The notes: generated by a model from the sequence alone, not told the origin. A stretch of 64,000 nucleotides of DNA from an uncultured Chloroflexia bacterium (GCA_963807035.1 CAWEAL010000003.1:430716-494715), one strand, 5' to 3'; positions 15,162 through 35,378 are shown, counted from the first letter of the stretch. Program-made: numbers and translations.

Positions 15162-16109
15162 CCGACGAAGCGCTGCCCGAGGCCACGATCCGGAACGAGC
15201 GGCTGCGCCTCCGGCTCCAGGCGATCCGGTCGTTTGCCCGGCGCTTCGCCGCCCGTCCGGACGGGGTGATCGGGGTGATCGTCCTGCTCGTGTTCGTCGT
15301 CCTCGCGATCGCCCCGAGCCTGTTCGTCGGCGACCTCCAGACCGTGACGACCGCGACCGGCACGTCGCTCGAGCCGCCCAGCGCCGCCCACCTGCTCGGG
15401 ACCGACGAGCTCGGCCGGGACATCCTCAACCTGACCGTCCACGGCACCCGGATCTCGATGGTGATCGGGCTGCTCGCGACGGTCGTCACGATCCTGCTCG
15501 GCGCCCTGATCGGGATCGTGTCGGGCTACATCGGTGGCCGGACCGACACGTTCCTGATGCGGGTGACTGACTTCTTCCTGGTCCTGCCGACGTTCGTGCT
15601 GGCCCTGATCCTCGCGCCGATCATCCTCGACCTGGTCGGGGCCGGCAGCACCGTCTTCGGGATCCGGGTCACCCTCCTCGTGATCATCTTCGTGATCGGG
15701 ATCACGAGCTGGGCGTCGACCGCCCGGATCATCCGGTCGCAGACGCTATCGATCAAGGAGCGCGCCTTCGTCGGGCGAGCCCGGGTGATCGGCTCGGGCG
15801 CCGGGCACATCATGTGGCGGCACATCCTGCCCAACGTGACTGAGCCTGATCGTGGCCAACACGGTCCTCGTCTTCGGCGGCTCGATCCTGACCGAGACGA
15901 CCCTGTCGTTCATCGGCCTGGGCGATCCCTTCGCACCGTCCTGGGGGCAGGTCCTCAACGCCGCCGAGTCGGCCGGCGCCATGGGCCTCGGGGCGTGGTG
16001 GTACGTCGTCCCGCCGTCCGTCTGCATCGTCCTCGTCGTCCTGTCGTTCACCCTGGTCGGCTCGGCCCTCGACGACGTCCTGAACCCGCGCCTGAGGATC
16101 CGCCGGTGA
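15158..16109 (+). CDS. ABC transporter permease (DppC/OppC type), one frameshift near 15839
   Basis: GTG 15158 overlaps the oppB-like stop (GTGA). The motif is HLLGTDELGRDIL. After HILPNV the frame shifts by what looks like one extra base into ORF 15852-16109 (ANTVLVFGGSILTETTLSFIGLG). Confidence 0.8.
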
Positions 16110-17423
16110 GCGGGCCGCGGGCGCCCGGGCCGGCGGACCCCCCCGACGAGGCCGCCGAAACCGAGGCGCTGGTGGTGCGGGCGGCGGCGCTCGACGCGCA
16201 GACGCTGATCCGGGGCCGTCGCCAGTGGCCGCTGCCGAGGCAGGCCGACCCGAATGCCCCGCTCCTCGTGGTCGAGCACCTGACCACCCGGTTCAAGATG
16301 GCCGGCGGCTCGATCAAGGCGGTCGACGACGTGAGCTTCCGGCTGAACGACGGCGAGGCTCTCGGGATCGCCGGCGAGTCCGGCTGCGGCAAGACGACCA
16401 CCGCCCTGTCGCTCGTCCGGCTCCTGCCGGGCAACGGCCGGATCGGCAAGGACAGCAGCGTCAAGCTGTTCGGGATCGACCTCGCCAGGAAGTCCGAGGA
16501 CGCCCTGCGGCGCTATCGCTGGCGGGAGATCTCGATCGTCTTCCAGGGCGCGATGAACGCCCTCAACCCGGTCCGACGGGTCGGCGAGCAGATCGCCGAG
16601 CCGGTCGAGTTGCGGCTCAAGGTCGACCGGGCCGACGCCCTCAGGCGGGCGGGCGAGCTGCTCGAGCTGGTCGGCATTCCCGCCCGACGTGGCCAGGCCT
16701 ACCCGCACGAGCTGTCGGGCGGGATGCGCCAGCGGGCGATGATCGCGATGGCCCTCGCCTGCGACCCGGCGGTCGTGATCGGCGACGAGCCGACGACGGC
16801 CCTCGACGTGATGGTCCAGGCCCAGATCCTCGAGCTCCTTGAACGGCTCCGGCGGGAGCTCGGCCTGTCCCTGATCCTGATCACCCACGACCTGTCGGTG
16901 ATCGCCGAGACGTGCGACCGGGTGATGATCATGTACGCGGGCAAGGTGGCCGAGGAGGGCGCCGGTCAGCGTCGTCTTCCGGACGCCGCGCCACCCGTAC
17001 ACCCAGAAGCTGATCGGCTCCTTCCCGAATATCCACGCCGACCGGCGCACCCTCGACGTGATCCCTGGCTCGCCGCCCGATCTGCGCGAGCCGCCGCCGG
17101 GCTGCCGCTTCCATCCGCGCTGCCCGTTCGCGATGGCGGTCTGCTCGGTCGAGGTGCCGCCCGAGGTGACCTTCGCCGACGGGGTCCGGGTCGCCTGCCA
17201 CCTCTACCCGCCGGGCAGCGACGGCGTGCCGATCACGAGCCCGACGAAGGACGCCCTCGTCCAGGCCGCGGTCGCGCCAGGACGTGGGCTCGGCGCTGGC
17301 GTCTTCAGCGACCGCGAGGTCCTCCTGGACGAGCTCGAGGAAGGGATCGAGCCGGCCTCCGAGCACACGCTCAGTCCGGGCCACGGTCTGACCGCCGACC
17401 ACTCGATGGACGACATCCAATGA
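16106..17423 (+). CDS. ABC transporter ATP-binding protein (OppD/DppD type), one frameshift near 16961
   Basis: GTG 16106 overlaps the previous stop. Walker A is GESGCGKTT, the signature is LSGGMRQR, and Walker B is VVIGDEPTTALD. After AEEG the frame shifts into HPYTQKLIGSFP...PPGCRFHPRCPFA (ORF 17058-17423). Confidence 0.8.
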
Positions 17424-18544
17424 CCGAGCTGCTCCGGCTGACAAGCCTGCAGGTCCACTTCCCGATCCGGGGCGGAGTCCTCGACGCGCTCCGCCGCCGC
17501 CCGATCGGCTACGTCCGGGCGGTCGACGGGATCGACCTGGCGATCAACAAGGGCGAGGTCCTGGCCCTTGTCGGAGAGTCGGGCTCGGGCAAGACCACCA
17601 CCGGCCGGGTGATCGTCAAGCTCACCCGCCAGACCGGCGGGCAGGTGATCTTCGACGGCCAGGACGTCAGCGACCGCTGGGGCGTGTCGAGGCTGCGCGA
17701 GTATCGACGGCGGGTCCAGATCATCTTCCAGGACCCGTACGAGACGCTGAATCCGAAGCAGACGATCCACGACTTCGTGTCCGAGCCGCTCGAGGTCAAC
17801 CACCTGGTGAAGTCGAATGCCGAGAAGGAAGCTCGGGTCGCCGCCGCGCTCGAGAGCGCCGGCCTGCGGCCGGCGCGCGAATTCGCCTTCCGCTTCCCGC
17901 ACGAGCTGTCCGGGGGGCAGCGCCAGCGGGTCGTCATCGCCGGGGCGCTCGTGATGAACCCCGAGCTGGTCGTTGCGGACGAACCGGTGTCGATGCTCGA
18001 CGTGTCGATCCGGACCGAGCTGCTCCGGCTGATGCTCGACCTCCGGCGCGACTTCGGGCTGACCTACCTGTTCATCACCCACGACCTGTCGCTGGCCTGG
18101 GTGATCGCCGACCGGATCGCGGTGATGTACCTGGGCAAGATCCTGGAGATCGGACCGGCCGAGGCGGTGATTCGCGCTCCTCGCAACCCGTACACGAAGG
18201 CGCTCGTGAGCGTCTCGCCGACGCCCGAGCCGGCCGACGCGGCAACCCGGGCGCAGCGCTACATCCTCCAGGGCGAGACCCCCGACGCGGCCCACGTCCC
18301 GAGCGGCTGCCGGTTCCACCCGCGCTGCCCGCTGGCGTTCGACCGGTGCAAGGTCGACGAGCCGCCACTGTTCGATGTCGGCGGCGGGCAGCAGGCGGCC
18401 TGCTGGCTGGCCGAGGGCGGCCGGGAGCTGCCGCCGTTCCCGGTGCGGCCGGGATCGCTGGCGCTGCCGGTGGTGCCGTACGCGTTGCCCATGCCGGCGT
18501 CATCGACCGAGCCGCCTGCTCCAGGCCCGGCGGCTCCGACGTGA
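17420..18544 (+). CDS. ABC transporter ATP-binding protein (OppF/DppF type)
   Basis: ATG 17420 overlaps the previous stop (ATGA). Walker A is GESGSGKTT, the signature is LSGGQRQR, and Walker B is LVVADEPVSMLD. The C-terminal region has PSGCRFHPRCP plus a Pro-rich tail. Confidence 0.9.
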   Translation: MTELLRLTSLQVHFPIRGGVLDALRRRPIGYVRAVDGIDLAINKGEVLALVGESGSGKTTTGRVIVKLTRQTGGQVIFDGQDVSDRWGVSRLREYRRRVQIIFQDPYETLNPKQTIHDFVSEPLEVNHLVKSNAEKEARVAAALESAGLRPAREFAFRFPHELSGGQRQRVVIAGALVMNPELVVADEPVSMLDVSIRTELLRLMLDLRRDFGLTYLFITHDLSLAWVIADRIAVMYLGKILEIGPAEAVIRAPRNPYTKALVSVSPTPEPADAATRAQRYILQGETPDAAHVPSGCRFHPRCPLAFDRCKVDEPPLFDVGGGQQAACWLAEGGRELPPFPVRPGSLALPVVPYALPMPASSTEPPAPGPAAPT

Positions 18545-19059
18545 TCCCACTGGCGCCCGAGCGGATCGCGCCGCTGCTGGCGGCGACGGTCGCGACGATG
18601 CGCGCCGAGGTCCGCGGCCTGGGCCCCGAGGCCGGCTGGCGGCCGGCGCCGGGGGAGTGGTCGGTGAGCGAGTGCGTCGGCCACCTGATCGAATGCGAGC
18701 GGCGCTCCTTCGCCGGCCGGATCCGCCTGATCCTCGAGACGGACGGCGTGCGGCTGGCGAGCTGGGACCAGGCGGCCGTGGCCGCCGAGCGGCGGGACGG
18801 CGAGGCCAACCCGATCGAGCTCGTCGAGTCATTCGCGACGCTGCGCAGCGAGGGGATCGCGCTCGTCCGGTCGCTGACCGCGGCCGATCTCGGCCGGGTC
18901 GGGATCCACCCGGAGATCGGACCGCTTCGGGTCGACGAGCTCCTTGGCGCGTGGGTCCATCACGACCGCAACCACATCCGCCAGGCACTGGCGGTGACCC
19001 AGGCCCGGGTCTGGCCGCAGATGGGCGCGACGCACCGCTTCAGCGATCCCGCCGGCTGA
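18541..19059 (+). CDS. DinB-family (DinB_2-like) four-helix-bundle protein
   Basis: GTG 18541 overlaps the previous stop (GTGA). The motifs are WSVSECVGHLIECE and GAWVHHDRNHIRQ, a His-rich metal triad pattern. Confidence 0.7.
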   Translation: MIPLAPERIAPLLAATVATMRAEVRGLGPEAGWRPAPGEWSVSECVGHLIECERRSFAGRIRLILETDGVRLASWDQAAVAAERRDGEANPIELVESFATLRSEGIALVRSLTAADLGRVGIHPEIGPLRVDELLGAWVHHDRNHIRQALAVTQARVWPQMGATHRFSDPAG

Positions 19060-19107
19060 GCTTCGGCGTCACGCCCGGCCGCAGCGACCGGCCGTCTCGC
19101 TGACCCC

Positions 19108-19180
19108 CGTCCGAATGTCGCTGCCCGGCGCATGACGCACGGGCCGCGCAACGGCTGGGTCGGTGTCCGACATTCGAACG
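19108..19180. terminator. imperfect 13-bp inverted repeat between convergent genes (possible bidirectional terminator hairpin)
   Basis: CGTCCGAATGTCG (19108-19120) pairs with CGACATTCGAACG (19168-19180), matching 12 of 13. An inner GCCCG...CGGGC stem sits in the loop. There is no U-tract. Confidence 0.3.
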
Positions 19181-19210
19181 AAGTCGGGCAGCCGAGCCGC
19201 CGCTCGCGGA

Positions 19211-20326
19211 CTACGTCCTCGGTCGGCGCTTCTCCGGGTCGTACAACGCGGGCTCGCCGACCGTGGCCGAGGCACTCCCCGAGCCGCCCTCGCCCAGGCT
19301 CACCTCGACCCGGGTGCCCGGGACCGCGGCCGCGCGATCGAGGATTGCCAGGGCGACCGTCCCGAAGCGGGGTGAGGCCGTCGGGCTGGTTGCCGCGCCG
19401 ACGACGACCCCGTCGAGGCTCACCTCAGCGCCTGCCTCGGGCACCTCGTCGCCGTTGATCGAGAGCGAGACGAGGCGCCGGACGGGCGGGCCCGCGTCAC
19501 GCTCGGCCCGGATCGCCGCATCCCCGTGGAAGGAGCGGCCGTCGATCCGCATGAAGCGCTCGAAGTTGATGTCGAACGGGCTCGACTCGCCGGGCGTGTA
19601 GTCGTAGCCCGGCAGGATCATCCCGGCCTCGATCCGCAGGACGTCGAGGGCGTCGAAGCCGTACGGCCGCACCTCGCCGGTCTCGGTCAGCGTCTGCCAC
19701 AGCGACTCGGCATGCTCGGGCCGGACGAACAGCTCGTAGCCGAGCTCGCCGGAGACGCCCGTCCGGGCGATCCACGCCGGCACCGCGCCGACCTTGACCG
19801 GCTCGGTCAGGAAGCGGAAATAGGGCAGGGTGGCCAGGTCGAACGCGACGTGGCGCTGGAGGATCTCGCGGGTCCGCGGGCCCTGGAACTGGACATGGGG
19901 CAGCTCGTGCACGATCAGTTCGATCGTGACGGCGAGGCCGCTCGAGACCTCGCGCAGGTGGTCGCCGAGGTCGAACCGGTTGGTCATGAACCAGACGTGG
20001 TCGGGTCCGAAGACGTAGATCGTCGCGTCGTCGACGATCCGGCCGTGGTCGTCGAGGAGCGGCGCGTAGCGGACCCTGCCGGGGCCATACGCAAGCACGT
20101 CGTTGGCGATGAGCCGGTCGGCCGCCCGCTGGGCATCGGGGCCGCGGAACTCCCACTTGATCAGGGCCGAGCAGTCCCAGATCCCGGCACCGTCGCGGAC
20201 CGCCGCGTACTCGCCCGCGCGGTCGCCGAAGCCGGTCGTCCACAGCCAGCCGTCCCAGTCGCCGAACTCGGCGCCGAGCTGCTCCTGGACCCGATGGAAC
20301 GCCGAGCGGACCGGGGCATCCGTCAT
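19211..20326 (-). CDS. aminomethyltransferase-family (GcvT-like, folate-binding) protein
   Basis: The motifs are GIWDCSALIKWEFRGPDA, RVRYAPLLDDHGRIVDDATIY and SGELGYELF. I prefer ATG 20326 (MTDAPVRSAF) because a -10 TACCCT lies 6 nt upstream. The ORF track starts at GTG 20353. Confidence 0.8.
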   Translation of the reverse strand: MTDAPVRSAFHRVQEQLGAEFGDWDGWLWTTGFGDRAGEYAAVRDGAGIWDCSALIKWEFRGPDAQRAADRLIANDVLAYGPGRVRYAPLLDDHGRIVDDATIYVFGPDHVWFMTNRFDLGDHLREVSSGLAVTIELIVHELPHVQFQGPRTREILQRHVAFDLATLPYFRFLTEPVKVGAVPAWIARTGVSGELGYELFVRPEHAESLWQTLTETGEVRPYGFDALDVLRIEAGMILPGYDYTPGESSPFDINFERFMRIDGRSFHGDAAIRAERDAGPPVRRLVSLSINGDEVPEAGAEVSLDGVVVGAATSPTASPRFGTVALAILDRAAAVPGTRVEVSLGEGGSGSASATVGEPALYDPEKRRPRT

Positions 20327-20332
20327 GGCCGG

Positions 20333-20338
20333 AGGGTA
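20333..20338 (-). promoter_or_regulatory. -10 element TACCCT, 6 nt upstream of ATG 20326
   Basis: The minus strand reads gccTACCCTccggccATG. Confidence 0.4.
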
Positions 20339-20457
20339 GGCGGGGCCGGGCACGCGGTGCGCCGCGTGTCCCGCGGGGTGCGACGCCCGGCGGGCGCGAC
20401 CGGCCCGGCGGCGCGCTACGCTGGACGGGCGCGGCGAGGGGATGGCGAGGTGCAGCG

Positions 20458-21258
20458 ATGAGTCAGTGGAACGGCAGCGGTTCTGGCCGGGGCGAGTGGG
20501 GCGGGGTCTCGGTCCTGGGCGTGATCCTGATCGTGATCGGAGCGATCTTCCTGGTCGACCAGGTCGGGATCTTCCAGTTCGCCTGGCAGGTCCTCTGGCC
20601 GGTGATCCTGATCGCGGTCGGTGCGGTCCTGCTGGTCAATGCCCTCGGGCGGCAGGCATTCGGCGGTCACGTCCACGGCACCGGCTCGGTGTCGTCGGCG
20701 ATCGCCCGCGATGGGGCAGGCCGGCTCGAGCTGGAGATCGGGGTCGGGGCCGGAACGTTCCGTCTCGGCGGCGGCTCGGGCCAGCTCGTCGAGGTCCACT
20801 CGTCAGTCGCCGATATCGCCGCCCAGGAGCGCCGCGAGGGTGACCTCGCCCAGGTTCGGTTGCGCCAAGATGTCGCCTCGTTCGGCGGCTGGCGGGGCGG
20901 CACGAGCTGGGAGATCCGGACGGCTTCGGAGATCCCGACCCGGCTCCGCTTCGACGCCGGCGCGGGCAGCTTCGACATCGACCTCAGCTCGGTCGCGATC
21001 GTCGAGGCGCGGTTCCAGGTCGGCGCGGCCCGGACCCGGATCGTCCTGCCCCGGCCACGGGGCAACGTTCTGGTCTCGATCACCGGCGGCGCCGCGTCCT
21101 TCTCGATCGAGGCGCCGGCCGGGGTCGAGTACCGCTTCGAGTCCGCCGGCGGCCTGACCAGCGTCGATGGCCGGACCGAGAGCCCGGGCTACGCCACGGC
21201 CGCCGACCGGGTCCTCGTCCGCTTCACGGGCGGGGCGTCCTCCGTTCGCATCGGGTGA
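20458..21258 (+). CDS. LiaF-like membrane protein with C-terminal beta-rich (DUF2154/toastrack-like) domain
   Basis: 266-aa ORF. It has two N-terminal TM helices (VLGVILIVIGAIFLVDQ, VLWPVILIAVGAVLLVNAL), then repeated beta-strand segments. Confidence 0.55.
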   Translation: MSQWNGSGSGRGEWGGVSVLGVILIVIGAIFLVDQVGIFQFAWQVLWPVILIAVGAVLLVNALGRQAFGGHVHGTGSVSSAIARDGAGRLELEIGVGAGTFRLGGGSGQLVEVHSSVADIAAQERREGDLAQVRLRQDVASFGGWRGGTSWEIRTASEIPTRLRFDAGAGSFDIDLSSVAIVEARFQVGAARTRIVLPRPRGNVLVSITGGAASFSIEAPAGVEYRFESAGGLTSVDGRTESPGYATAADRVLVRFTGGASSVRIG

Positions 21259-24756: not shown

Positions 24757-25368
24757 TCAGCCGCGGTAGCGGAAGCAGCCGGGCAGGTGATCGTCGACGA
24801 GGCCGACGCTCTGCATGAAGGCGTAGGTGATCGTCGGGCCGACGAATCGGAAGCCGCGCGCCTGGAGGTCCTTCGACAGGGCGACCGAGGCTGGAGTGCT
24901 GGCCGGGATGTCCCCGCTCCGGGCGGTGGCGGGCAGCGGTCGGGGCTCGGGCACGATCGTTCTGAGGTAGGCGTCGAAGCCGCCGTGGTCCCGGCTGACG
25001 GCCACGTACCCGATCGCGTTGCCGATCGTTGCGTCGATCTTGGCTCGGTTGCGGACGATCCCGGCGTCGGCCATCAGGCGCTCCCGATCGCGGTCGCCGA
25101 ACGCGGCGACGACCGCCGGATCGAAGCCCCGGAACGCGGTCCGGAACGCCGCGCGCTTGCGCAGGATCGTCGACCACGACAGGCCGGCCTGGAACGACTC
25201 GAGGGCGAGACGCTCGAACAGCTCGACGTCATCGGCCGTTGCCACCCCCCACTCGTCGTCGTGGTAGGCGGTCATCAGCGGATCGGGCCGCGGCCCGTCG
25301 GCGCCGGCCCAGGCGCACCGCCCGACGACGATCACGGCATCGGCGTGGTGGCGACGAGGGTGCTCCAC
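24757..25368 (-). CDS. tag: DNA-3-methyladenine glycosylase I
   Basis: RCAWAG...DPLMTAYHDDEWGV, FERLALESFQAGLSW and the C-terminal FMQSVGLVDDH are the Tag signature. Confidence 0.85.
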   Translation of the reverse strand: MEHPRRHHADAVIVVGRCAWAGADGPRPDPLMTAYHDDEWGVATADDVELFERLALESFQAGLSWSTILRKRAAFRTAFRGFDPAVVAAFGDRDRERLMADAGIVRNRAKIDATIGNAIGYVAVSRDHGGFDAYLRTIVPEPRPLPATARSGDIPASTPASVALSKDLQARGFRFVGPTITYAFMQSVGLVDDHLPGCFRYRG

Positions 25369-26704
25369 ATGTACGGGTCGGCCGCAGGCGAGCCGGCGTT
25401 GAAGACCTCCCGGAAGATCTCACCGCTGACCGACTTCGTGCCCAGGCTGCCGGTCAGGACCACCTTGATCAAGCGGCCCGAGTCGCCCGTGTCCGACAGG
25501 TCGAGCCTCGTCAGGGTCCCCACGTTCGTGCGCGAATCGGTGGCGAAGATCGCCGACAGCTGGGCGAACGTGTAGGTCGCGGTGTGCCACGTTGCGTGGG
25601 GCGAGCCGCTGTCGTATGAGACCCCGTTCGGGTCGCGGTCGGGTGAGCCGCGCAGGTAGCTGACCGGGCCCGACACGATCCGGCCCGTCGAGGAGGTGTA
25701 CACGTCCTCATTGTTCTCTGTCGCGCCGCCGTCGGCCGAGTGGTAGAGCGCATCGATCACCGTCGAGCCGCTCTTCAGGACGCCGCCGGCGGTTGCCGTG
25801 ACGGCGGTCGTCCCGGCGGCGGCCTCGCCGAGCGAGCCCTGGTAGACCTGCGAGCGGCTGGTGTCGTACAGGTCGTACGTGCCGACCCCGGGGTGGACGT
25901 GTGCTTCGGCGTAGCTCCGGGCGGCGATCGCCTGCGCCTTGAGGGCCTCGGTCGGCCAGGTTGCGGGCATCTCGGCCGGCACGACCCCGAGCAGGTACTG
26001 GTCGATCCCGATCTCGTTGACCGCGATCACGCCGCTCGGGGTTCCGACGACCCGGATCACTGCCCGGTACGTGTCATGCACGCTCGGCTTCGAGTCGACC
26101 TGGATCCGGCCCGGGTCGGCACCCGACCGAAGGCGAACGTCGGCGCCGGCGGTCGTCCTCTTCAGGAGCGTCGTCCCGGTGGCCGAGGTGACCTGGATCC
26201 CGAAACCGCTGCCGGACCGCCAGATCGCCACCCGGGCACCGATCGGGAACGTGCCGCTCACGCCGTCGATCGTGAATGGGGCGCCGCGGCCGTGGAGGAC
26301 GATCGGGTTGGTCGAGCTCGGCGCGGTCGGGCCGAGGACGGCACCCGGACCGGAGCCGCCGGGTTGATCGTGGCGGGCGTCGTCCCCTGGTAGTAGTGGC
26401 CCAGGATTTCCGGCGCCGTCTGGCCGGCCAGGGCCCGGCCCCGAGCGCCGTACTGGCTCATGCCGAGGCCATGGCCGTAGCCCCGGCCGTAGAACGTCAG
26501 CGAGCCCTGCCGGAGCTGGATCGAGCCGATCGGCACGGGCAGGCTGGACGAGGGCAGGGTCCAGGCCAGGACCGGTGAGGCCGATCCGAGCGCAAGCACG
26601 GCCAGGAGCACGATCACGCCGCCGAGCGTGGCCTGTCGTCGACGTGTCCGCCGACCTCCGATCGTGCCTCGAGCTGGCATCGGCTCCTCCTGCTCCGACG
26701 GCAC
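25332..26704 (-). CDS. SpoIID/LytB-domain protein (secreted), one frameshift near 26355
   Basis: N-terminal TM/signal region, then FYGRGYGHGLGMSQYGARGRA. After the shift come YLLGVVPAEMP..WPTEALKAQAIAARSYA and YHSADGG.TENNEDV. Confidence 0.8.
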
Positions 26705-26762: not shown

Positions 26763-27848
26763 TTGGCTGAGGTGGAGGCCGCCGTCCCTGTCCTGGAGGT
26801 CCTGTTCGGGATCGCCCTGATCGGCTATGTCGGCTGGGACGTCTTCAACACGGTTGCCCTGCCCCGGCCGACCCCATCCGTCTACCGGATCGCCCGGAAC
26901 ACGACCCGGTTCGTGTGGTGGGCGTGGCGCTGGCGGGCGCGCCAGATCAGCCCCGGCGCCGGGCGCGAGCGCTGGCTCGGGCTCTACGCACCGCTCATGG
27001 TCCTGTTCCTGCTGGCGATCTGGGTCGTCGTCCTGATCGCCGGGTTCGCCCTGATCAACCTGGCCTTTGCCGCCGACTTCAGCCCGCCAATCACGAGCCT
27101 CGGGACCGCCCTGTACGCGACCGGCACGAGCGTGTTCACGATCGGCTTCGGCGACTACGTGCCGACCGCCACGCCGACCCGGCTCGTCGCGGTCGCATCG
27201 GCCGGGGCCGGCCTGGGCACGGTCGCCCTGGTGATCACCTACCTCTTCTCGCTGTACGCCTCGTTCCAGCGCCGGGAGGTGCTCGTCACGACCCTCGACG
27301 CGCGGGCGGGCGCCCCGCCGTCCGGGCTGGCCCTGCTCGAGACGGCCCGGCGGACCGGCCTGCTCGACGAGCTGCCCGAGCTCTTCGGCAAGTGGGAGCA
27401 GTGGGCCGCCGAGGTCCTCGACAGCCACGTCTCGTATCCGATCCTCGGCTACTTCCGCTCGACCCACGACAACGAGTCGTGGCTCGCCTCGCTCGGTGCG
27501 ATGCTCGACGCCGCCGTCCTGATCCTGACCACGGTCGAGGACCAGCCCCGCGGCCGGGCCGAGATGCTCGTGGCGATCGGCGTCCACCTGGCCGAGGATG
27601 TGTCCGGCTTCTTCGGCTTTGCCAACGACGGGCGGGTGGGTATCGAGCGGTCCGAATACGACGTCGCCCGGGCCCGCCTCGAGGCCGCCGGCTACCGGCT
27701 CGAGTCCGCCGACGTCGGCTGGATCCTGTTCGCCCAGCTCCGCGGGCGCTATGCCTCCCGGCTGAACGAGATGGCCGGGTTCTGGATGATCCCGCCGGCG
27801 CTGTGGTTCGGCAGCGACGATCATGAGGGCCACCACGCCGGAAGCTGA
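26763..27848 (+). CDS. two-TM potassium-channel-family protein (Ion_trans_2 pore domain + C-terminal soluble domain)
   Basis: The selectivity filter TIGFGDY sits between hydrophobic helices. An in-frame GTG at 26772 is an alternative start. Confidence 0.75.
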   Translation: MAEVEAAVPVLEVLFGIALIGYVGWDVFNTVALPRPTPSVYRIARNTTRFVWWAWRWRARQISPGAGRERWLGLYAPLMVLFLLAIWVVVLIAGFALINLAFAADFSPPITSLGTALYATGTSVFTIGFGDYVPTATPTRLVAVASAGAGLGTVALVITYLFSLYASFQRREVLVTTLDARAGAPPSGLALLETARRTGLLDELPELFGKWEQWAAEVLDSHVSYPILGYFRSTHDNESWLASLGAMLDAAVLILTTVEDQPRGRAEMLVAIGVHLAEDVSGFFGFANDGRVGIERSEYDVARARLEAAGYRLESADVGWILFAQLRGRYASRLNEMAGFWMIPPALWFGSDDHEGHHAGS

Positions 27849-27880
27849 GCCGGCCACCCGAGCCCGGCCGGTCGCTTCGC

Positions 27881-30700
27881 TCAGGCGCCGGCGGTCATCG
27901 GCAGCTCGATCGTCGTCTCCGGCCGGAGCGGCGTTCCGGGGTGACAGGTGAAGTAGAGGACCTGGTGGCGGGTTGCGAGCTCCTCGATCGAGCGGGCGGC
28001 CCGTTCGGCCCGGCCCGGGTCGAAGTTGACCAGGATGTCGTCCATCACGATCGGCAGGGACTCGGCCTCGCGCGCGAAATGCTCGACCAGGCCGAAGCGC
28101 AGGGCGAGGTACAGCTGCTCGGCCGTCCCGGTCGACAGGGCGCTGATCGGCACCACCGTGCCGTCCCGCCGCTCGAGCTCCTGGACCTGCTTGCCGAGCG
28201 GGGCGAGGATCCTCGCGTAGCGGCCGTCGGTCCATCCGGCGAGAAGTGTCTCGGCCATCCGGAGCACCTCGGGCCGGTGCTCGCGCTCGTACCGGTTGCG
28301 CGTGCGCCGGAGCAGCTCGAGGGCGATCGTCGTGACCGACCAGGTCTCGGCCAGCACCTCGAGCTCGGCGATCCGGTCGGCGCGCTCCTGGCGCAGCCCG
28401 GCGGCCTCGGTCGAGTGCTCGATCTCGGCGATCCGGTCGCGCTCTGCCCCGAGCTGCTCATGGGCCGCCGCCCGGCGGACGTCGACCCGCCGGGCCTCCT
28501 CGTCGATGCCGGCGAATTCCGCCTCGATCCGGGCGACATCGTCGAAACCGGCCAGGTCCGCCTCGAACGCGGTGAGTGCGGCACCCGGCCCCGACAGCGC
28601 GACGAGGGTGTCCTCGGCGGCCTGGACCTCGCGCTCGATCTGGGCTCGCCGGGCCGCCCCCTCGATGATCACCCGGAGGCCTGGTCCATCGGCCGCGCCA
28701 CCGGCCGCCAGGACAGCTGCGTGCTCGGCGTGGGCGGCCTCGCGCGCCGCGTCGTTCGCGGCGATCGTCGCGTCGAGGCGTTCGAGGGCGGCAATCGCGC
28801 GGGCCCGGCCCTCCTGGGCCGACACGCTCGCGGCAAGGTCCCGCCGGATCTCCTCGAGGCCGATGAGTGGGTCCTCGACCGGGCGGCCGAGGCGTTCGAG
28901 GAGGGCGACGATCTCGCCTTCGGTCGCCGCCACCCGCGCGGCGATCCCCCGGCGGCGCGCGTCGATCGACTCGCGCCCGGCCAGGATGCCCCGGGCGACG
29001 ACCGCGCCCTCGATGATCCGGGCGGCGGATTCGCGGTCGAGGTCGGGGGCGAGGCCACGTTCGGTGAGCCAGGCACGCCAGCCGACCTGGGCTGTTTCCT
29101 GGGCCCTCGCGACCGCCGCCAGCCGGTTCGCCGCCGCCTGGACCCGTTGCTCGAGGAGTCGGACCCGCGCGAGTCGCTCCTCACGCCGGGCGGCGATCGG
29201 ATTCGTCGTCGCACCGGTTGATCGTTCGATCCGGCGCGAGCGCCTGACCAGGATGCCGCTGACCAGTCCGGCCGCGCCGGCGAGCAGGATGAGCAGACTG
29301 ATCTGCGGGCCGGTGAGGCCGAAGGCGGCCGTCGCCGCGGCCACGGCGATCCCGCTCGCGATGGCGACAAGGATCCCTGCCTGCAGACCAGATTCGGTCG
29401 GCATGACCCAACTGGAAGGCTCGGGCGCAGGGCCGATCGCGGCCAGGTCCGCCCGGGCATCGGCGAGGCTCTGTTCAGCCCCGGCTTGCTCGAGCCGCGC
29501 CGACGCCAGGTCGCGCTCCGCAGCTTCGAGGGAGGTCCGGAATGGGCCGGCGATCGCCCCCTGGGCGGCGAGCGAGTCATCGACGCCGAGCAGACGCTCC
29601 TCGCTCCAGTCGGGCCCGAGCCGCCGGAGCGCCTCGCCGAGGGCGGCCGTCCGGTCGGCCCGGTCGCGCTCGACGTCGCCGATCCGGCTCCGGTCGGCCC
29701 GGATGTCGGGCACGAGCGCCAGCAGCCGCTCGGCCTCGGCCCGGACGGCCAGGAGTGCTTCATCGACCGGCGCGCTGTCCCGTTCGGCCGCGAGCCGCCC
29801 GCGCTCCGCGGCGAGCTCGTCGGCCCGCGTCGCGGCGGCGGCCAGGTCCCGCTCGGAACGGGCGAGGCGTTCGAGCAGGTCGACGGGCAGGTCATCGGGC
29901 AGGCCGAGCCCGGCCGAGGGATCCGGCGGCAGCTCGGCGGCCCGGCTGCGTGCCCTCGCCAGGGCGAGCCAGGCCGGCCAGCCATCGCGCAGGCGTTCGA
30001 GCCGGCGCCGGGCGACGGCGATCGCCCCGGCCTCGATGGCCAGGCCGGCGAGCTCGGCCTCGAGCTCGGCCTGCCGTCCGCCGGCGGCCCGGAAGACGGC
30101 CGGCGGGTCGAGCGCCTCGATCCGGGCGTCGAGCGCGTCGATCTCGGCGAGCAGGACGTTGATCCGGGGGATCCGGCCCTGCTTGACGAACAGGTCCGAG
30201 CGGCGCTTCTCGAGCCGGTTCTCGACCTCGACGACGGACGTCGCTCCGGTGCCCATCCCCGCGCCGTAGATCCTCGCCTGGATCTCCGCGCTCGTCAGGT
30301 TGCCGAACTGGGCCAGCTCTGCCAGGCCGAATGCGAAGACGTTGTTGTAGACGGTCTTCTCGACGCCCTGGAGGATCCGCGGCAGGAGATCGGCCCCGAG
30401 GTCATCGCCGTCGGGGTCGACGAGCCGGAGCTGGCCGGGGCCGCCGGTCAGCCCGTAGCGCTCGATCCGGACGCGCCGGCCATCGCCGGTCGTGACCGTC
30501 AGCCAGCCGCCCCGCCGGCCGCCGGCGAGGGCGGGGTGGCCGTTCGTCACGAACCCGAACAGGATCGCCCGGATGAAGGCGAGCAGGGTCGACTTGCCCG
30601 CTTCGTTCTCGCCCCGGATCAGTGTCAGGCCCGGCCCGGGCTTGAGGTGCCTGTCGCGGAGCAGGCCGAATCCATCGACGGCGATCTCGTCGATTCGCAC
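27881..30700 (-). CDS. SbcC/Rad50-like (YhaN-type) AAA ATPase with long coiled coil
   Basis: GTG 30700 opens VRIDEIAVDGFGLLRD...LIRGENEAGKSTLL (Walker A). About 700 aa are Ala/Arg/Glu/Leu coiled coil. The C-terminal region has LSTGTAEQLYLALRFGL (signature) and LPIVMDDILVNFD (Walker B). The part of ORF 27881-31645 upstream of 30700 overlaps the SbcD-like gene and is not coding. Confidence 0.85.
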   Translation of the reverse strand: MRIDEIAVDGFGLLRDRHLKPGPGLTLIRGENEAGKSTLLAFIRAILFGFVTNGHPALAGGRRGGWLTVTTGDGRRVRIERYGLTGGPGQLRLVDPDGDDLGADLLPRILQGVEKTVYNNVFAFGLAELAQFGNLTSAEIQARIYGAGMGTGATSVVEVENRLEKRRSDLFVKQGRIPRINVLLAEIDALDARIEALDPPAVFRAAGGRQAELEAELAGLAIEAGAIAVARRRLERLRDGWPAWLALARARSRAAELPPDPSAGLGLPDDLPVDLLERLARSERDLAAAATRADELAAERGRLAAERDSAPVDEALLAVRAEAERLLALVPDIRADRSRIGDVERDRADRTAALGEALRRLGPDWSEERLLGVDDSLAAQGAIAGPFRTSLEAAERDLASARLEQAGAEQSLADARADLAAIGPAPEPSSWVMPTESGLQAGILVAIASGIAVAAATAAFGLTGPQISLLILLAGAAGLVSGILVRRSRRIERSTGATTNPIAARREERLARVRLLEQRVQAAANRLAAVARAQETAQVGWRAWLTERGLAPDLDRESAARIIEGAVVARGILAGRESIDARRRGIAARVAATEGEIVALLERLGRPVEDPLIGLEEIRRDLAASVSAQEGRARAIAALERLDATIAANDAAREAAHAEHAAVLAAGGAADGPGLRVIIEGAARRAQIEREVQAAEDTLVALSGPGAALTAFEADLAGFDDVARIEAEFAGIDEEARRVDVRRAAAHEQLGAERDRIAEIEHSTEAAGLRQERADRIAELEVLAETWSVTTIALELLRRTRNRYEREHRPEVLRMAETLLAGWTDGRYARILAPLGKQVQELERRDGTVVPISALSTGTAEQLYLALRFGLVEHFAREAESLPIVMDDILVNFDPGRAERAARSIEELATRHQVLYFTCHPGTPLRPETTIELPMTAGA

Positions 30701-30708
30701 GGCCGGCC

Positions 30709-31986
30709 TCAGCCCGCGTCGTCGAGCTGGTCGATCACCAGGGCCTCGGCCGACTCGAGCATCGCCAGCAGGCGGCTCGTGTCGGGCCGCGCCCCGCGCA
30801 GGACGCGGCGGGCCCGGGCATGGTCGTACAGGTCCGCCAGCAGGCTGTCCAGGTCGGCGCCCTGGCCTTCGCGCAGGGCGGTTCGGCTGCGGTTGAACTC
30901 GCGGAGCGACTCGCCGAGCAGGTCGCCCGCCTCGCGTCGGACGTCGAGGTCGATCGACGGCCGGGTCTCGTTCCGGATCGACTCGAGCCAGGCGAACGGG
31001 TCGCCAGCGCCGAACCGGTCCCGGACCAGGCCCTGCAGGTCGTCCAGGAAGCCGGGGCGCCGGAGCGAGGCGTGCTGAGGGCCGCGGCCGGTCAGGGTCA
31101 CGATCGCGACGATCGAGCGCCCGGCGGCGTCGGCGGCCGCCTCGACGGCCCCGCCGACCCCCTGGACGAGGGCCTCCTCGGTCGTGATCCCGTCGATCGC
31201 GACGGTCAGCCGCTGCCAGCGCACGACATCGGTCGCCCGGAACTCCGGCTTGACGGCGCCGGCCTCGCCGACCTCGACCAGGTAGCACCCCCGCGGGTCC
31301 GCCTCGCCGGGATCGCGACCCTGCGGGTTGCCGCAGTAGACGACGGTCGGTGCGGCGGCGCGCAGGACCCCGTGGCGGTGGATGTGGCCGAGCGCCCAGT
31401 AGTCCATCCCGCTCGCGACCAGGTCCGAGATCGAGCACGGAGCGTAGTTGGCGTAGCCCTCGATGCCGCCGACGTTGGCGTGGAGCAGGCCGATCGCGAA
31501 CGGCTCGTCGGCGTTGCGCCGGAAGCCCGGGACCAGGTTGCGGGTGACGTCCCGGACGGCATAGCTGATGCCGTGGACGCGGGCGATCTCGATCCCGCTG
31601 CGGACGAGCGGCCGGCTCGTCACCTCGGACGAGCCGAACCGCCACGCCAGGTCGGGCCAGGCGACGGCCGGCTCCCAGCCCGAGAGCGGGTCGTGATTGC
31701 CCGTGACGACGAAGGTCGGGATCAGCTCCCGGGCGAGCCGGTCGAGCCCAGCCGCGAAGGCGACCTGGGCGCGCAGCGTCCGGTTCGCACCTTCGAAGAC
31801 GTCGCCGGCGACGAGCACCGCGTCGACGCGCTCGTCGATCGCAAGGGCGACGATCCGCTCCCAGCTGCGCAGGGTCGCGTCCCGCAGGGTCGCGGCGATC
31901 CGCTCGGGAACCGCCTGGGCGATGCCCAGGAACGGGCTGTCGAGGTGGAGGTCACCGGTATGGACGAAGCGAAGCCCCACCCCCAC
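30709..31986 (-). CDS. SbcD/Mre11-like (YhaO-type) metallophosphoesterase DNA exonuclease
   Basis: The calcineurin-fold motifs are FVHTGDLHLD, VLVAGDVFE, VVTGNHD, LLHANV and GHIH. It ends 8 nt before the ATPase gene start. Confidence 0.85.
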   Translation of the reverse strand: MGVGLRFVHTGDLHLDSPFLGIAQAVPERIAATLRDATLRSWERIVALAIDERVDAVLVAGDVFEGANRTLRAQVAFAAGLDRLARELIPTFVVTGNHDPLSGWEPAVAWPDLAWRFGSSEVTSRPLVRSGIEIARVHGISYAVRDVTRNLVPGFRRNADEPFAIGLLHANVGGIEGYANYAPCSISDLVASGMDYWALGHIHRHGVLRAAAPTVVYCGNPQGRDPGEADPRGCYLVEVGEAGAVKPEFRATDVVRWQRLTVAIDGITTEEALVQGVGGAVEAAADAAGRSIVAIVTLTGRGPQHASLRRPGFLDDLQGLVRDRFGAGDPFAWLESIRNETRPSIDLDVRREAGDLLGESLREFNRSRTALREGQGADLDSLLADLYDHARARRVLRGARPDTSRLLAMLESAEALVIDQLDDAG

Positions 31987-31989
31987 TCG

Positions 31990-33282
31990 TCAGCGAACCT
32001 CGATGACCCGGAACCCGATCCGACCTGACGGGATCACGACCTCGACGGCATCGCCGGGGCTTCGCCCGAGGAGGGCCGCCCCGATCGGCGAGACGTTCGA
32101 GATCCGATCTGTCCGAGGGTTCGCCTCGGCGGCCCCGACGATTCGGTAGGTCGTGGTCTCGAGCGCACCCGCGGGGTCCATCCGCTCGACGACCACGGTC
32201 GAGCCGATTCCGACGACGCTGCCGCCGCCGGCCTCGACCACGACCGCGTTGCGGATCTGGTCCTCGATCTGGCGGATCCGGCCCTCGGCGAAGCTCTGCT
32301 CGCGGCGCGCCTCGTGGTAGTCCGAGTTCTCCTTGAGGTCGCCCAGCTCGCGGGCGGCCGCGATCCGCGCGACGATCGCCGGGCGGAGGACGGTCGTCAG
32401 CTCGTGCAGCTCGGCCTGGAGCGTGGCAAGCCCTTCGGCGGAGAGGTGGACTGCGGGACCGGCGGGCCGTCCGGCGGCCTTGACGGCGGCCGCGGCCGCC
32501 CGTGAGCCGGTCGCGGCCCGCGGCGTCGTGCTGCGCGGCCGGGGCGTGCTCGATCGGAGGATGCCCGTCCGGCGGGTCGGGTCGGCGGCGGTCCGCCCGG
32601 ACGCCGACCGGGCAGTCGGAGCGCCCCGAGCCGCGGCCGCGGCGGCCGCCACCCGCTCCGACTTCGTGGCCGGGCGATCGGGCTCGTCGGCGAGGAGGGC
32701 GCCCCGGATCCCGTGCTGGCGGCGCTCGTTGGTGGCCGTCTGGAGATTGCCGAAGGGCAGGACGACGGTGCTGTCGCGGAGGGCGGCCTTGCTCTCCGGC
32801 GAGACGCCCTGGGCGAACGCCGACAGGAGGGCGTCCTCGTACTCCTCGGGCGCCGAGGTCGTCGCCCACCAGACCCGGCTGTCGGGCAGGACGCTGAGCG
32901 TCTTCAGCCAATGGCCGCCGGAGTGCGGGCGGCGATCGCCCAGCCGCGTGTTCACGAACGCCCCCACCCGACCCCCGATCGACAGGCTGGTCATCCCGAT
33001 GTAGACGACCGTCTCGTCGGGCAGCCAGAACTCGCCCAGGCGGACGGCCAGCTCGCGCTGGGTGGGCCGGGCCCCGTCGAGGGTGAGGCCAGGCACGCGC
33101 TCGATCCAGTGGGCGACGAGCTGGTGGTCGATCGGCGCCGACTTGAGCGGCGCAGCGAGCTCGACGATGTAGATTCCCGGGCCGCCGGCCCGGACGGGAC
33201 TGCCCCATCGGACGGGTCCGTCGGCGAGGAGGCCGACGGAGCGGAGCAGCTCGGCCGCCCCGAGCGAGCGAGGTTCGGTCAT
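31990..33282 (-). CDS. fusion protein: N-terminal GIY-YIG-like domain + basic low-complexity linker + complete GreA/GreB-type transcript cleavage factor
   Basis: 430-aa ORF. The N-part has EFWLPDETVVYIGMTSLSIGGRVGAF..R..H.., EEYEDALLSAF and LPFGN. The C-part has LSAEGLATLQAELHEL, GDLKENSDYHEARREQ and SPIGAALLGRSPGDAVEV. The stop lies 3 nt before the SbcD-like start. Confidence 0.8.
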   Translation of the reverse strand: MTEPRSLGAAELLRSVGLLADGPVRWGSPVRAGGPGIYIVELAAPLKSAPIDHQLVAHWIERVPGLTLDGARPTQRELAVRLGEFWLPDETVVYIGMTSLSIGGRVGAFVNTRLGDRRPHSGGHWLKTLSVLPDSRVWWATTSAPEEYEDALLSAFAQGVSPESKAALRDSTVVLPFGNLQTATNERRQHGIRGALLADEPDRPATKSERVAAAAAAARGAPTARSASGRTAADPTRRTGILRSSTPRPRSTTPRAATGSRAAAAAVKAAGRPAGPAVHLSAEGLATLQAELHELTTVLRPAIVARIAAARELGDLKENSDYHEARREQSFAEGRIRQIEDQIRNAVVVEAGGGSVVGIGSTVVVERMDPAGALETTTYRIVGAAEANPRTDRISNVSPIGAALLGRSPGDAVEVVIPSGRIGFRVIEVR

Positions 33283-33306
33283 TCAGGATCCCAGTGCGGG
33301 TCTCCC

Positions 33307-33312
33307 AGTGTA
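33307..33312 (-). promoter_or_regulatory. possible -10 (TACACT) for the GreA-fusion/SbcD/SbcC operon
   Basis: The minus strand reads ggtTACACTgggagacccgcactGGGAtcctgaATG. A short leader carries a weak GGGA Shine-Dalgarno. Confidence 0.3.
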
Positions 33313-33367
33313 ACCGGCCGCCCGGGTCAGCTCGGCTGTCACGGCTCCCGGGGCGCTCGCCCGGGCC

Positions 33368-34696
33368 CTAGCGCGAGGCGCCGGTGGGGCCGCGGAGGGG
33401 CTTGCGGTGGGCGTGGCCGTGCTCGGGCGTGGCAGCTCCGGCCCCGAACCCGCCGCCCCGGCCGGACCCTGCACCGGCCCGTCCGCCCGGGCCGAAGCCG
33501 CGCAGGGGCCGAACCTCGACCGACCGGTCGGGCAGGAAGCCCTCGACCACCCGGTAGGGGATCTGGCGCTTCAGGAGCCGCTGGACGCCCTTGAGCAGCT
33601 CGACCTCGTCCATGCACACGAGCGAGATTGCCACGCCTGACAGGCCGGCCCGGCCGGTCCGGCCGATCCGGTGGATGTAGTCCTGGGGTTCGAACGGCAG
33701 CTCGAAGTTGACGACGTAGGGCAGCTCTTCGATGTCGAGCCCGCGCGACGCGACGTCGGTGGCGACCAGGCAGGTCACCTCGCCCGATTTGAAGTCCTCG
33801 AGCGCGCGTGTCCGTTCGGGCTGGCTGCGATCGCTGTGGATCGCCACCGCCGCCACGCCGCGCCGGTCGAGGTAGGAGGCGAGCCGGCTGGCCGCCAGCT
33901 TCGTCCGGGTGAAGACGAGGACCTGGCTCATCTTGTCGCGCCGGATCAGGTGAAGGAGCAGGTCCTCCTTCCGCTCGCGATCGACCGGGTAGAGAACCTG
34001 CTCGACGTTCTCGGCGGCGGTGTTGCGCCGGGCAACCTCGACGATCGCCGGGTTCTTCAGGAACTCGCTCGCCAGCCGGCGGATCTCGTCCGAGAAGGTC
34101 GCCGAGAAGAGCATCGTCTGGCTCCGGTTCGGGAGCTGGGCCACGATCTTGCGGATGTCCGGGATGAAGCCCATGTCGAGCATCCGGTCGCCCTCGTCGA
34201 GGACCAGGATCTCGACCTGGCTGAGGTTGACCGTGCGCTGGCCCATGTGGTCCATCAGCCGACCCGGGGTGGCCACCAGGATCTCGATCCCACCCCGGAG
34301 CTCCTTGATCTGGGGATCGATCGGGACGCCGCCGTAGACCACGGCCGACCGAAGAGGCACGTACTTGCCGTACGTCGCCACGCTCTCGGCGATCTGCATC
34401 GCCAACTCGCGGGTCGGCGTCAGCACGAGCGCCCGGACCGGGTGGCGGGCCGGCGAGAAGCTGGAGTTCGCCTGGGCCTTGAGCCGTTCGAGGATCGGCA
34501 GGGTGAACGCGGCAGTCTTGCCGGTGCCGGTCTGGGCGGCGGCGAGCACGTCGCGGCCGGCCAGAACGAATGGGATGGCCTCGGCCTGGACAGGCGTCGG
34601 CTCGGTGTAGCCCTCCTCGGCCACGGCCCGGAGGATGTCGGCCGAAAGGCCGAGGGTATTGAACGACAAGCGGGTGTGGGCTCCTGGTTCGCCCAT
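33368..34696 (-). CDS. DEAD-box ATP-dependent RNA helicase (RhlE-like) with RGG-rich tail
   Basis: Q-motif region FNTLGLSADILRAV..GYTEPTPVQ, motif I AQTGTGKT, DEGD (DEAD variant), SAT, HRIGRTGRAG, and a C-terminal GRAGAGSGRGGGFG. Start taken at MGEPG (34696). The ORF extends to 34768. Confidence 0.85.
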   Translation of the reverse strand: MGEPGAHTRLSFNTLGLSADILRAVAEEGYTEPTPVQAEAIPFVLAGRDVLAAAQTGTGKTAAFTLPILERLKAQANSSFSPARHPVRALVLTPTRELAMQIAESVATYGKYVPLRSAVVYGGVPIDPQIKELRGGIEILVATPGRLMDHMGQRTVNLSQVEILVLDEGDRMLDMGFIPDIRKIVAQLPNRSQTMLFSATFSDEIRRLASEFLKNPAIVEVARRNTAAENVEQVLYPVDRERKEDLLLHLIRRDKMSQVLVFTRTKLAASRLASYLDRRGVAAVAIHSDRSQPERTRALEDFKSGEVTCLVATDVASRGLDIEELPYVVNFELPFEPQDYIHRIGRTGRAGLSGVAISLVCMDEVELLKGVQRLLKRQIPYRVVEGFLPDRSVEVRPLRGFGPGGRAGAGSGRGGGFGAGAATPEHGHAHRKPLRGPTGASR

Positions 34697-34793
34697 CTTG
34701 AACGGCGCCGGAAAGAGGCGGCCGGACGGGCGGGTCGTCCTCGAGTCTACGGGATTCACTCGTTCCACGGACGCAGTCGCGTGCGCGGCCGTC

Positions 34794-34799
34794 TAGGAT
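34794..34799 (+). promoter_or_regulatory. -10 element TAGGAT, 6 nt upstream of ATG 34806
   Basis: The sequence reads gtcTAGGATgggccgATG. Confidence 0.45.
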
Positions 34800-34805
34800 G
34801 GGCCG

Positions 34806-35378
34806 ATGCAGCACCCCGACCGCCTCTTCTACACCGGTGACGAGGCCGCCGATCGGCTGATCGCGACCGATCCGCTGGCTCTCCTGATCGGCTTCAGCCT
34901 CGACCAGCAGGTGAGCGTCCAGAAGGCCTTCAGTGGACCTCTCGAGCTGACCCGCCGGACCGGCCGGGCCCTCGATGCCCGGGCGATCGCGGCGATGGAT
35001 CCGGCCGAGCTTGCCGGGATCTTCCAGGCGCGCCCGGCGCTCCATCGATTTCCCGGGGCGATGGCCGGCCGGGTCCAGGCTCTTTGCTCGGCGATCGCGA
35101 CCGACTACGACAACGACGCGACCGCAATCTGGCGAGGGGCGAAGGATGCCCGCGACCTCCAGCGCCGGTTGCTGGCCCTGCCCGGGATCGGCGAGATGAA
35201 GGCGCGTACGATCACTGCCGTGCTGGCCAGGCGGTTCGGGTTCGACCTGCCCGGCCTGGCCGAGTCCCTCCCAAAGCACCCGACCCTCGGCGACGTCGAC
35301 TCGGCCGAGGCGCTGGCGAGCTACCAGGCCGGCAAGCGGGCCTACAAGGCCACGCTCCGGGCCGCCCCCAAAGGCTGA
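34806..35378 (+). CDS. HhH-GPD-type base-excision DNA repair protein
   Basis: 190-aa ORF with LLIGFSLDQQVSVQKAF and the helix-hairpin-helix LLALPGIGEMKARTITAVL. Confidence 0.7.
   Translation: MQHPDRLFYTGDEAADRLIATDPLALLIGFSLDQQVSVQKAFSGPLELTRRTGRALDARAIAAMDPAELAGIFQARPALHRFPGAMAGRVQALCSAIATDYDNDATAIWRGAKDARDLQRRLLALPGIGEMKARTITAVLARRFGFDLPGLAESLPKHPTLGDVDSAEALASYQAGKRAYKATLRAAPKG

Follow-up and report, generated by a model that had tools for sequence, protein, structure and literature searches.

Results

Gene organization of the locus

The 64,000-nucleotide (nt) stretch of DNA from an uncultured Chloroflexia bacterium that was analyzed here (GCA_963807035.1, CAWEAL010000003.1:430716-494715; hereafter the window, in whose positions all coordinates are given) has a G+C content of about 72% and carries a gene in which a GreA-type transcription factor is fused to a large additional N-terminal domain, termed the N-domain in the following. 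According to the listing of open reading frames (ORFs), this gene of 430 amino acids (aa) is the second of four that lie on the minus strand in the same direction, namely a DEAD-box helicase gene (33368-34768), the fusion gene, and two genes for proteins of 425 and 939 aa. The intergenic gaps amount to 85, 3 and 8 nt in this order. The first-pass annotation, which a model had made from the sequence of the window, described the same three-part protein of N-domain, linker and Gre factor at 31990-33282, and the 3-nt and 8-nt gaps to the next two genes are as it claimed. A scan of positions 27500-35000 for promoters and terminators returned zero sites in this DNA of 72% G+C. The fusion gene is composed as follows:

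31990..33282, minus strand: whole fusion gene (N-domain, linker and GreA), 430 aa; ORF listing
32683..33282, minus strand: N-terminal domain, residues 1-200; AlphaFold2 model, family profile and conserved residues
32449..32682, minus strand: linker, residues 201-278; composition
32239..32448, minus strand: GreA N-terminal coiled-coil domain, residues 279-348; Pfam PF03449, E 7.2e-26
32329..32340, minus strand: acidic tip of the coiled coil, D315...E318 in GDLKEN; read from the sequence
31996..32220, minus strand: GreA C-terminal globular domain, residues 355-429; Pfam PF01272, E 4.9e-19

Conservation and distribution of the fusion

Scanning one genome per GTDB species with a profile of the N-domain identified 307 loci, and all orthologue counts given here were obtained from the best 80 of these 307. 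Nearly all of the 80 belong to Candidatus Limnocylindria or to other Chloroflexota metagenome-assembled genomes (MAGs), while the few loci with other phylum labels are probably mis-binned contigs. The GreA module is found about 200 nt downstream of the N-domain in 76 of the 80 loci, hence the fusion recurs and is no singleton in the databases. In 71 of the 76 loci both parts form a single uninterrupted in-frame ORF, and many of these come from short-read assemblies; split versions occur mainly in long 'MFD' MAG assemblies, where the DEAD and SbcC genes are split as well. Since the ORF is intact in such a large majority of loci and the identical 430-aa protein is also present in an independent Logan assembly, an assembly artefact or a frameshift in the linker can be ruled out, and the fusion proposed by the first-pass annotation is genuine and conserved. 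Related proteins of 427 aa are named by NCBI and IMG as 'transcription elongation factor GreA' only. Among 59 distant orthologues, mean sequence identity was 59.4% for the N-domain compared to 54.3% for the GreA module, i.e. constraint on the N-domain is no weaker than that on GreA.

The GreA module and the linker

The C-terminal part of the protein matches both Gre domains of Pfam, GreA_GreB_N (PF03449) at residues 279-348 with 90.6 bits against a cut-off of 24.5, and the GreA_GreB C-terminal domain (PF01272) at residues 355-429. It also passes the curated GreA cut-offs of NCBIfam, with 150.7 bits versus 145 for the equivalog model NF001263 and 145.1 versus 139 for TIGR01462. The coiled-coil tip GDLKEN with its acidic residues D315 and E318 is, together with the surrounding residues, at least 90% conserved among 71 orthologues. 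By these matches the last 152 residues make up a complete Gre factor, and the corresponding early claim could be endorsed in full.

Between the two halves lies a linker of 78 aa (residues 201-278), somewhat shorter than the approximately 85 aa estimated at first, with the predicted basic Ala/Arg/Thr/Pro composition: it contains 24 Ala, 13 Arg, 9 Pro and 9 Thr residues, and 15 basic residues face 3 acidic ones. The linkers of the orthologues are between 41 and 136 aa long. The motif DPTRRTG[VI]LRS is common to the linkers of the clade of the window and of a second clade with 61-66% identity, the version in the window being DPTRRTGILRS, whereas 31 of 71 other orthologues have the motif TR[VI]V.[VL]PDGDAEGARGEPP directly after the N-domain instead. 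It is possible that these conserved linker motifs represent short binding motifs.

The N-domain, its family and its signature residues

Residues 1-210 gave zero matches to Pfam, NCBIfam, PADLOC or PHROGs models or to PDB sequences, and a direct sequence search of the N-domain against the PDB returned nothing useful. An exhaustive hidden Markov model search of 1.84 billion cluster representatives, on the other hand, retrieved 1076 clusters of N-domain relatives at E<=1e-3, of which 820 were found at E<=1e-10. This family is without a Pfam model, and many of its members are free-standing proteins of about 200 aa from organisms with lower G+C content. AlphaFold2 modeled the N-domain from a 63-sequence alignment as a compact alpha/beta structure with a mean predicted local distance difference test score (pLDDT) of 94.4 and a predicted template modeling score (pTM) of 0.89, in which strands are formed by residues 21-25, 36-41, 92-98 and 136-141 and helices by residues 53-62, 75-83, 102-111, 124-128, 145-159 and 162-166.

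In the set of free-standing members the elements G-x-Y, W...E (FWLPDE), Y-x-G, R, H, GG, E and P-x-A-N are invariant. The protein encoded in the window has the complete signature, consisting of G36-x-Y38, Y94-x-G96, R105, H120, E149 and N179, which reproduces the order GIY...YIG...R...H...E...N of the GIY-YIG nucleases. The first-pass annotation had recognized this order correctly, but had placed it in a domain of residues 75-200, while the conserved domain comprises residues ~1-200. Among the 76 fused orthologues, Y94 (74/76), R105 (75/76), the cluster E146-E147-Y148-E149-D150 (76/76) and N179 (75/76) are near-invariant, and all six signature residues are retained in 19 of the 76, including the protein of the window and all 12 loci that are linked to SbcD/SbcC genes.

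Free-standing relatives and other domain architectures

Looking up the exact proteins of the free-standing members yielded only contigs of about 1.3 kb. In 8 of approximately 52 metagenome loci with usable flanks, the free-standing gene is situated directly between the genes for TerL and the portal protein, followed by those for a ClpP-type prohead protease and an HK97-type capsid protein. Members of ~200 aa in HK97-type morphogenesis modules are exemplified by the metagenome contigs L146, L149, L150, L104 and L101, and a further 18 viral contigs with the N-domain (L171-L188) were found in IMG/VR. The interval between terminase and portal genes is a typical site of free-standing phage endonuclease genes, and judged by its members this family, which lacks annotation, resembles a phage endonuclease. 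The difference to such phage genes is that the copy in the window is chromosomal, fused, fixed and non-mobile.

The N-domain also occurs in other combinations. A paralogue in Limnocylindria consists of an N-domain with ~64% identity and, in place of GreA, a C-terminal domain of about 70 aa ending in '...RRWTIRC' (sites L028, which equals L002, at 10001-11047, and L084; proteins P0008, P0012, P0051 and P0108); the same small domain is found at the N-terminus of P0185. In P0212, P0236, P0255 and their relatives the N-domain is followed by a domain of about 110 aa with the motif 'IRxP...LRG...W.PR.GP.ERSG', and in P0221 and P0252 by a possible winged-helix domain. As a guess, these alternative C-terminal domains may be of wHTH, B3/AbrB-like or HARE-HTH-like type. 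Collectively, these architectures suggest an effector module with interchangeable targeting domains, of which GreA would be one. In addition, L002 harbors at 15626-21047 a contractile-injection or tail-like cluster (Phage_GPD, GPW_gp25, Baseplate_J, Tail_P2_I) together with an NADase_transloc protein; its position, roughly 5-10 kb from the paralogue with the alternative C-terminal domain, is probably incidental.

Relation of the N-domain to GIY-YIG nucleases

When 40 family members were compared with Pfam, the only recurring matches, all of them below threshold, were to four families of the GIY-YIG clan, namely GIY_YIG_2 (8 members), GIY-YIG (6), GIY_YIG_domain (2) and T5orf172 (1). Likewise, the recurring sub-threshold matches of 31 members in NCBIfam were to three UvrC models (8, 4 and 4 members) and to PRK07883 models, which are named 'DEDD exonuclease domain-containing protein' and belong to a family that bears a GIY-YIG domain as well. 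The sole relevant PDB profile match was UvrC (1yd6), which aligned on the YIG-Arg helix with E=1, and PHROGs gave one weak 'endonuclease' match for one family member. Alignment of the family profile with the N-termini of UvrC and Cho from E. coli by hhalign reached a probability of 73-90% (P 2e-6 to 3e-5), with 29-51 columns aligned under default settings, compared to a maximum of 0.7% over 42 unrelated control proteins, and in a relaxed alignment the invariant E149 falls on the catalytic Glu of UvrC. The N-domain shares with the UvrC/Cho N-terminal domain, in the same order, YIG, a spacing of 8-9 residues, R-x3-Y, the catalytic Glu on the next helix, and P-x-x-N. It differs from UvrC/Cho by an additional N-terminal beta-hairpin and by the separation of its first two motifs, because in the model the G-x-Y strand (36-41) and the YIG strand (92-98) are about 55 residues apart instead of forming a hairpin of ~10-11 residues, and the stretch just before YIG (FWLPDE) is without Tyr and adopts a coil.

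Several results weigh against this relationship or against a nuclease function that is retained in the fusions. The core aligned by hhalign comprises just those 29-51 columns, mainly the YIG-Arg helix, and comparisons with I-TevI, YhbQ, SegA, SegF and I-TevII gave zero signal. None of the curated GIY-YIG models scored above threshold with the domain of the window or with members of the family. Foldseek searches with the full model gave best E values of 0.7 in the PDB and 0.07 in BFVD, with no GIY-YIG protein among the best 50 matches listed per library, so that the GIY-YIG-like fold expected for an AlphaFold model of the N-terminal part was not recovered; a model of residues 84-200 alone likewise matched nothing in the PDB, but the strands were lost in this fragment. 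We regard the Foldseek failure as weak evidence against a GIY-YIG fold of the modeled domain. The alternative C-terminal partner domains of the family had zero Pfam matches, hence the argument for swappable targeting is one of architecture alone. Finally, two signature positions that are invariant in the free-standing members have changed in many fusions: of the 76 fused orthologues, 46 have Phe and 30 have Tyr at position 38, while just 37 have His at position 120, where it is replaced in the other 39.

Taken together, an origin of the N-domain from a GIY-YIG module of the UvrC/Cho-like type is probable. The nuclease half that had been proposed initially thus stands as a plausible divergent UvrC/Cho-like module, in line with the profile similarity and the phage-endonuclease-like relatives, but it attained neither a curated threshold nor a Foldseek match. 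Both tyrosines of the motif matter for catalysis in the literature on UvrC, Eco29kI and Hpy188I. If both are also needed here, many orthologues may be impaired for hydrolysis, and because Tyr38 and/or His120 are lost in most of them, the conserved role throughout the class would more likely be binding or sensing than hydrolysis. The protein of the window and its clade, with their full signature, could nevertheless be catalytically competent.

The SbcF/SbcE pair and other neighboring genes

The genes around the fusion are the following:

30709..31986, minus strand: SbcF/YhaO-like (Mre11/SbcD-type) phosphoesterase, 425 aa; Metallophos E 1.1e-13 and motifs
27881..30700, minus strand: SbcE/YhaN-like SMC-type ATPase, 939 aa; AAA_27 E 5.9e-19, AAA_23
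29240..29389, minus strand: hydrophobic central segment of the ATPase, residues ~438-487; hydropathy scan
33368..34768, minus strand: DEAD-box helicase (RhlE-like, DEGD variant); Pfam DEAD and Helicase_C

The 425-aa protein shows, in addition to the Metallophos match, weak matches to SbcD/Mre11 models and contains the phosphoesterase motifs I, II, III and V (DLH12, GDVFE61, GNHD96 and GHIH200), which bears out its description as an Mre11/SbcD-like exonuclease. The description of the 939-aa protein as a Rad50/SbcC-like ATPase is equally backed by the AAA_27 and AAA_23 matches, a Walker A motif GENEAGKS, the signature STGT and a Walker B motif IVMDD. It contains one Cys in the whole protein and hence lacks the CxxC zinc hook that characterizes canonical SbcCD/Rad50-Mre11 complexes; at the position of this hook in Rad50/SbcC, i.e. 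at the apex of the coiled coil, residues ~438-487 form two strongly hydrophobic, transmembrane-like helices. The SbcE protein of B. subtilis has been described as CxxC-less with an insoluble hydrophobic central domain (PMC2811018). The pair downstream of the fusion shares with B. subtilis SbcE/SbcF (YhaN/YhaO) this type of central domain, the AAA_27 ATPase and the order of nuclease and then ATPase, and on the basis of these features it is of the SbcF/SbcE (YhaO/YhaN) type. B. subtilis is, however, a very distant lineage, and the adjacency to greA is here confined to one clade; we know of no description of such an adjacency for Bacillus.

SbcD/SbcC genes follow the fusion in 11 of 11 loci that have at least 75% N-domain identity and enough flanking sequence, but in 0 of 59 loci below 75% when up to 10 kb were considered. 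The distant loci have response regulators and a GAF kinase, or unrelated genes, at the corresponding place. A conserved SbcCD partnership is thus ruled out; the pair is a clade-specific neighbour and no obligate partner, and since it is absent from the distant loci, the link is not needed for the conserved function of the fusion. Of the two observations that the first-pass annotation had said would together speak against it, a fusion occurring as a singleton and a lack of conserved SbcCD linkage, the second was made here. The one neighbor that is conserved class-wide is the DEAD-box helicase, which is located upstream on the same strand in 14 of 14 close and 56 of 61 distant loci (70/75 informative loci), at a distance of 60-430 nt in the close clade and of ~2.1-2.9 kb elsewhere, where unrelated genes lie between.

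Among the further neighbors named at the outset, the DEAD-box helicase and Tag were both verified, while the supposed HhH-GPD glycosylase, a 190-aa ORF at 34806-35378 on the plus strand, had zero Pfam matches at E<=1e-3. PADLOC left the fusion and the SbcD-like protein unmatched and gave only generic P-loop and SF2 matches for the ATPase and the helicase. Hence, the gene array does not correspond to a known defence system, and the early suggestion of an anti-phage or anti-plasmid conflict module found no backing in the PADLOC families. Downstream, a SpoIID-like gene (25332-26704, minus strand) is apparently split over two frames: a 148-aa ORF at 26258-26704 represents its N-terminal part, the remainder lies inside a long spurious ORF, and 9 stops are encountered when the whole stretch 25332-26704 is translated in a single frame. 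The split reflects either an assembly indel or a pseudogene and is consistent with an indel-prone assembly.

Discussion

Few regulators of bacterial RNA polymerase have been studied as well as the Gre factors, which are usually minimal proteins of two domains. Like the canonical GreA of E. coli (PDB 1grj), the protein studied here has both Gre domains with the acidic D...E tip, and its scores exceed the GreA cut-offs of NCBIfam. Canonical GreA comprises about 158 aa, however, while the protein of the window has 430 aa owing to an N-domain of ~200 aa and a basic linker of 78 aa. The reading that we favor, to which we assign a probability of roughly 55%, is that Limnocylindria have a lineage-wide GreA carrying a domesticated nuclease-like module, which the GreA part would tether near RNA polymerase, and that SbcF/SbcE is a neighbor specific to one clade. 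By analogy to the Gre family, the coiled coil would enter the secondary channel of RNA polymerase and D315/E318 would stimulate cleavage of backtracked RNA. The N-domain family would most likely be a divergent UvrC/Cho-type GIY-YIG endonuclease with an insertion of about 55 residues between the GIY and YIG strands, one copy of which may have been domesticated onto GreA in Limnocylindria. GreA would then serve as the arm that targets the protein to RNA polymerase by docking at the secondary channel, and the flexible basic linker of 41-136 aa would allow the N-domain to reach nucleic acid around the paused or backtracked polymerase. We infer that the N-domain binds or cleaves nucleic acid near RNA polymerase.

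Long GreA proteins have precedents. The extended GreA of Chlamydia and spirochaetes, represented by NF004969 ('transcript cleavage factor/unknown domain fusion protein') and NF011309, are likewise long, lineage-fixed proteins with a C-terminal Gre factor. Their N-termini are, however, unrelated to the N-domain, because only residues 282-429 align to these models, with 38 and 77 bits versus cut-offs of 697 and 714, and the extension in the window, unlike theirs, is a compact domain that bears a nuclease-like signature and has relatives in phages. A second precedent are the effector-TPR-GreA/B-C-PIN proteins, in which, according to a published proposal (Kaur, Burroughs, Iyer, Aravind 2021), a Gre-derived module directs an effector to RNA polymerase. 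These proteins use the Gre C-terminal domain alone, have variable effectors and are sporadically distributed (PMC8195603), in contrast to the full GreA, the one fixed N-domain and the class-wide syntenic gene found here. Lineage-fixed long GreA proteins and Gre C-domains proposed as modules targeting RNA polymerase were hence already known, whereas the novelty lies in the identity of the added domain, in its class-wide distribution and in the unannotated family to which it belongs. Within the literature collection that was searched, no paper names both GreA and GIY-YIG.

One alternative to the favored reading, which follows the model of the first-pass annotation, is that an active GIY-YIG nuclease, brought by GreA to stalled or backtracked RNA polymerase, nicks or breaks the DNA, and that the co-transcribed SbcF/SbcE pair processes the ends, so that the array would constitute a dedicated operon for transcription-replication conflicts or break processing. 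The co-directional order of helicase, fusion, SbcF and SbcE with its gaps of 85, 3 and 8 nt, the strict adjacency within the clade of the window, the complete Y-Y-R-H-E-N signature in all SbcCD-linked loci and the finding of the repair nucleases UvrC and Cho as best remote matches are in line with it, and GreA has been reported to influence DNA break repair (PMC6829880). However, none of the 59 distant orthologous loci has SbcD or SbcC, the association of the intact signature with SbcCD is confounded by phylogeny, because it comes from a single clade, and the nuclease activity is predicted for a fold that Foldseek did not confirm. We therefore consider this operon unlikely as a general explanation, and it survives as a possibility for one clade.

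It appears about equally doubtful that the N-domain in the fusions has become a non-catalytic, exapted module for binding nucleic acid or protein, which might tune the recruitment of GreA or its competition for the secondary channel in analogy to the chlamydial and spirochaetal extensions. The existence of these long GreA fusion models in NCBIfam and the frequent Phe38 and non-His120 substitutions, in a domain that is strongly conserved overall nonetheless, would fit such a role; on the other hand, Y94, R105, E149, N179 and the EEYED cluster are nearly invariant, and the protein of the window and 18 other orthologues have kept the full signature.

Still more tentative is the idea that a UvrC/Cho-like endonuclease, permanently tethered to the secondary channel via GreA, might incise DNA, an R-loop or a DNA flap at polymerases arrested by damage or head-on conflict. 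This would amount to a direct transcription-coupled incision independent of Mfd and UvrA, after which SbcF/SbcE from the same operon might process the ends in the clade of the window. An anti-phage or anti-plasmid module, in which GreA would aim the N-domain as effector at an RNA polymerase hijacked by an invader, is very improbable despite the precedent of the effector-TPR-GreA/B-C-PIN conflict proteins (PMC8195603) and the phage association of the N-domain family, because the gene is present as one copy at a conserved syntenic site with housekeeping neighbors in essentially every species representative and not patchy like defence genes, it encodes a complete GreA with conserved catalytic tip instead of the C-domain alone, and PADLOC matches none of it.

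Regarding the favored reading of a GreA with a domesticated module, the finding means that a whole class of abundant soil and freshwater Chloroflexota has a fixed GreA bearing a conserved nuclease-like domain, for which the public label is just 'GreA'. It also defines an unannotated domain family, which comprises more than 1000 clusters and has members in phages as well as several fusion architectures, and it would represent a case of a mobile-element nuclease that was domesticated by a core transcription factor. Should DNA or RNA at stalled polymerases be the target of the N-domain, this would provide a new link between the rescue of backtracked RNA polymerase and DNA repair or conflict resolution.

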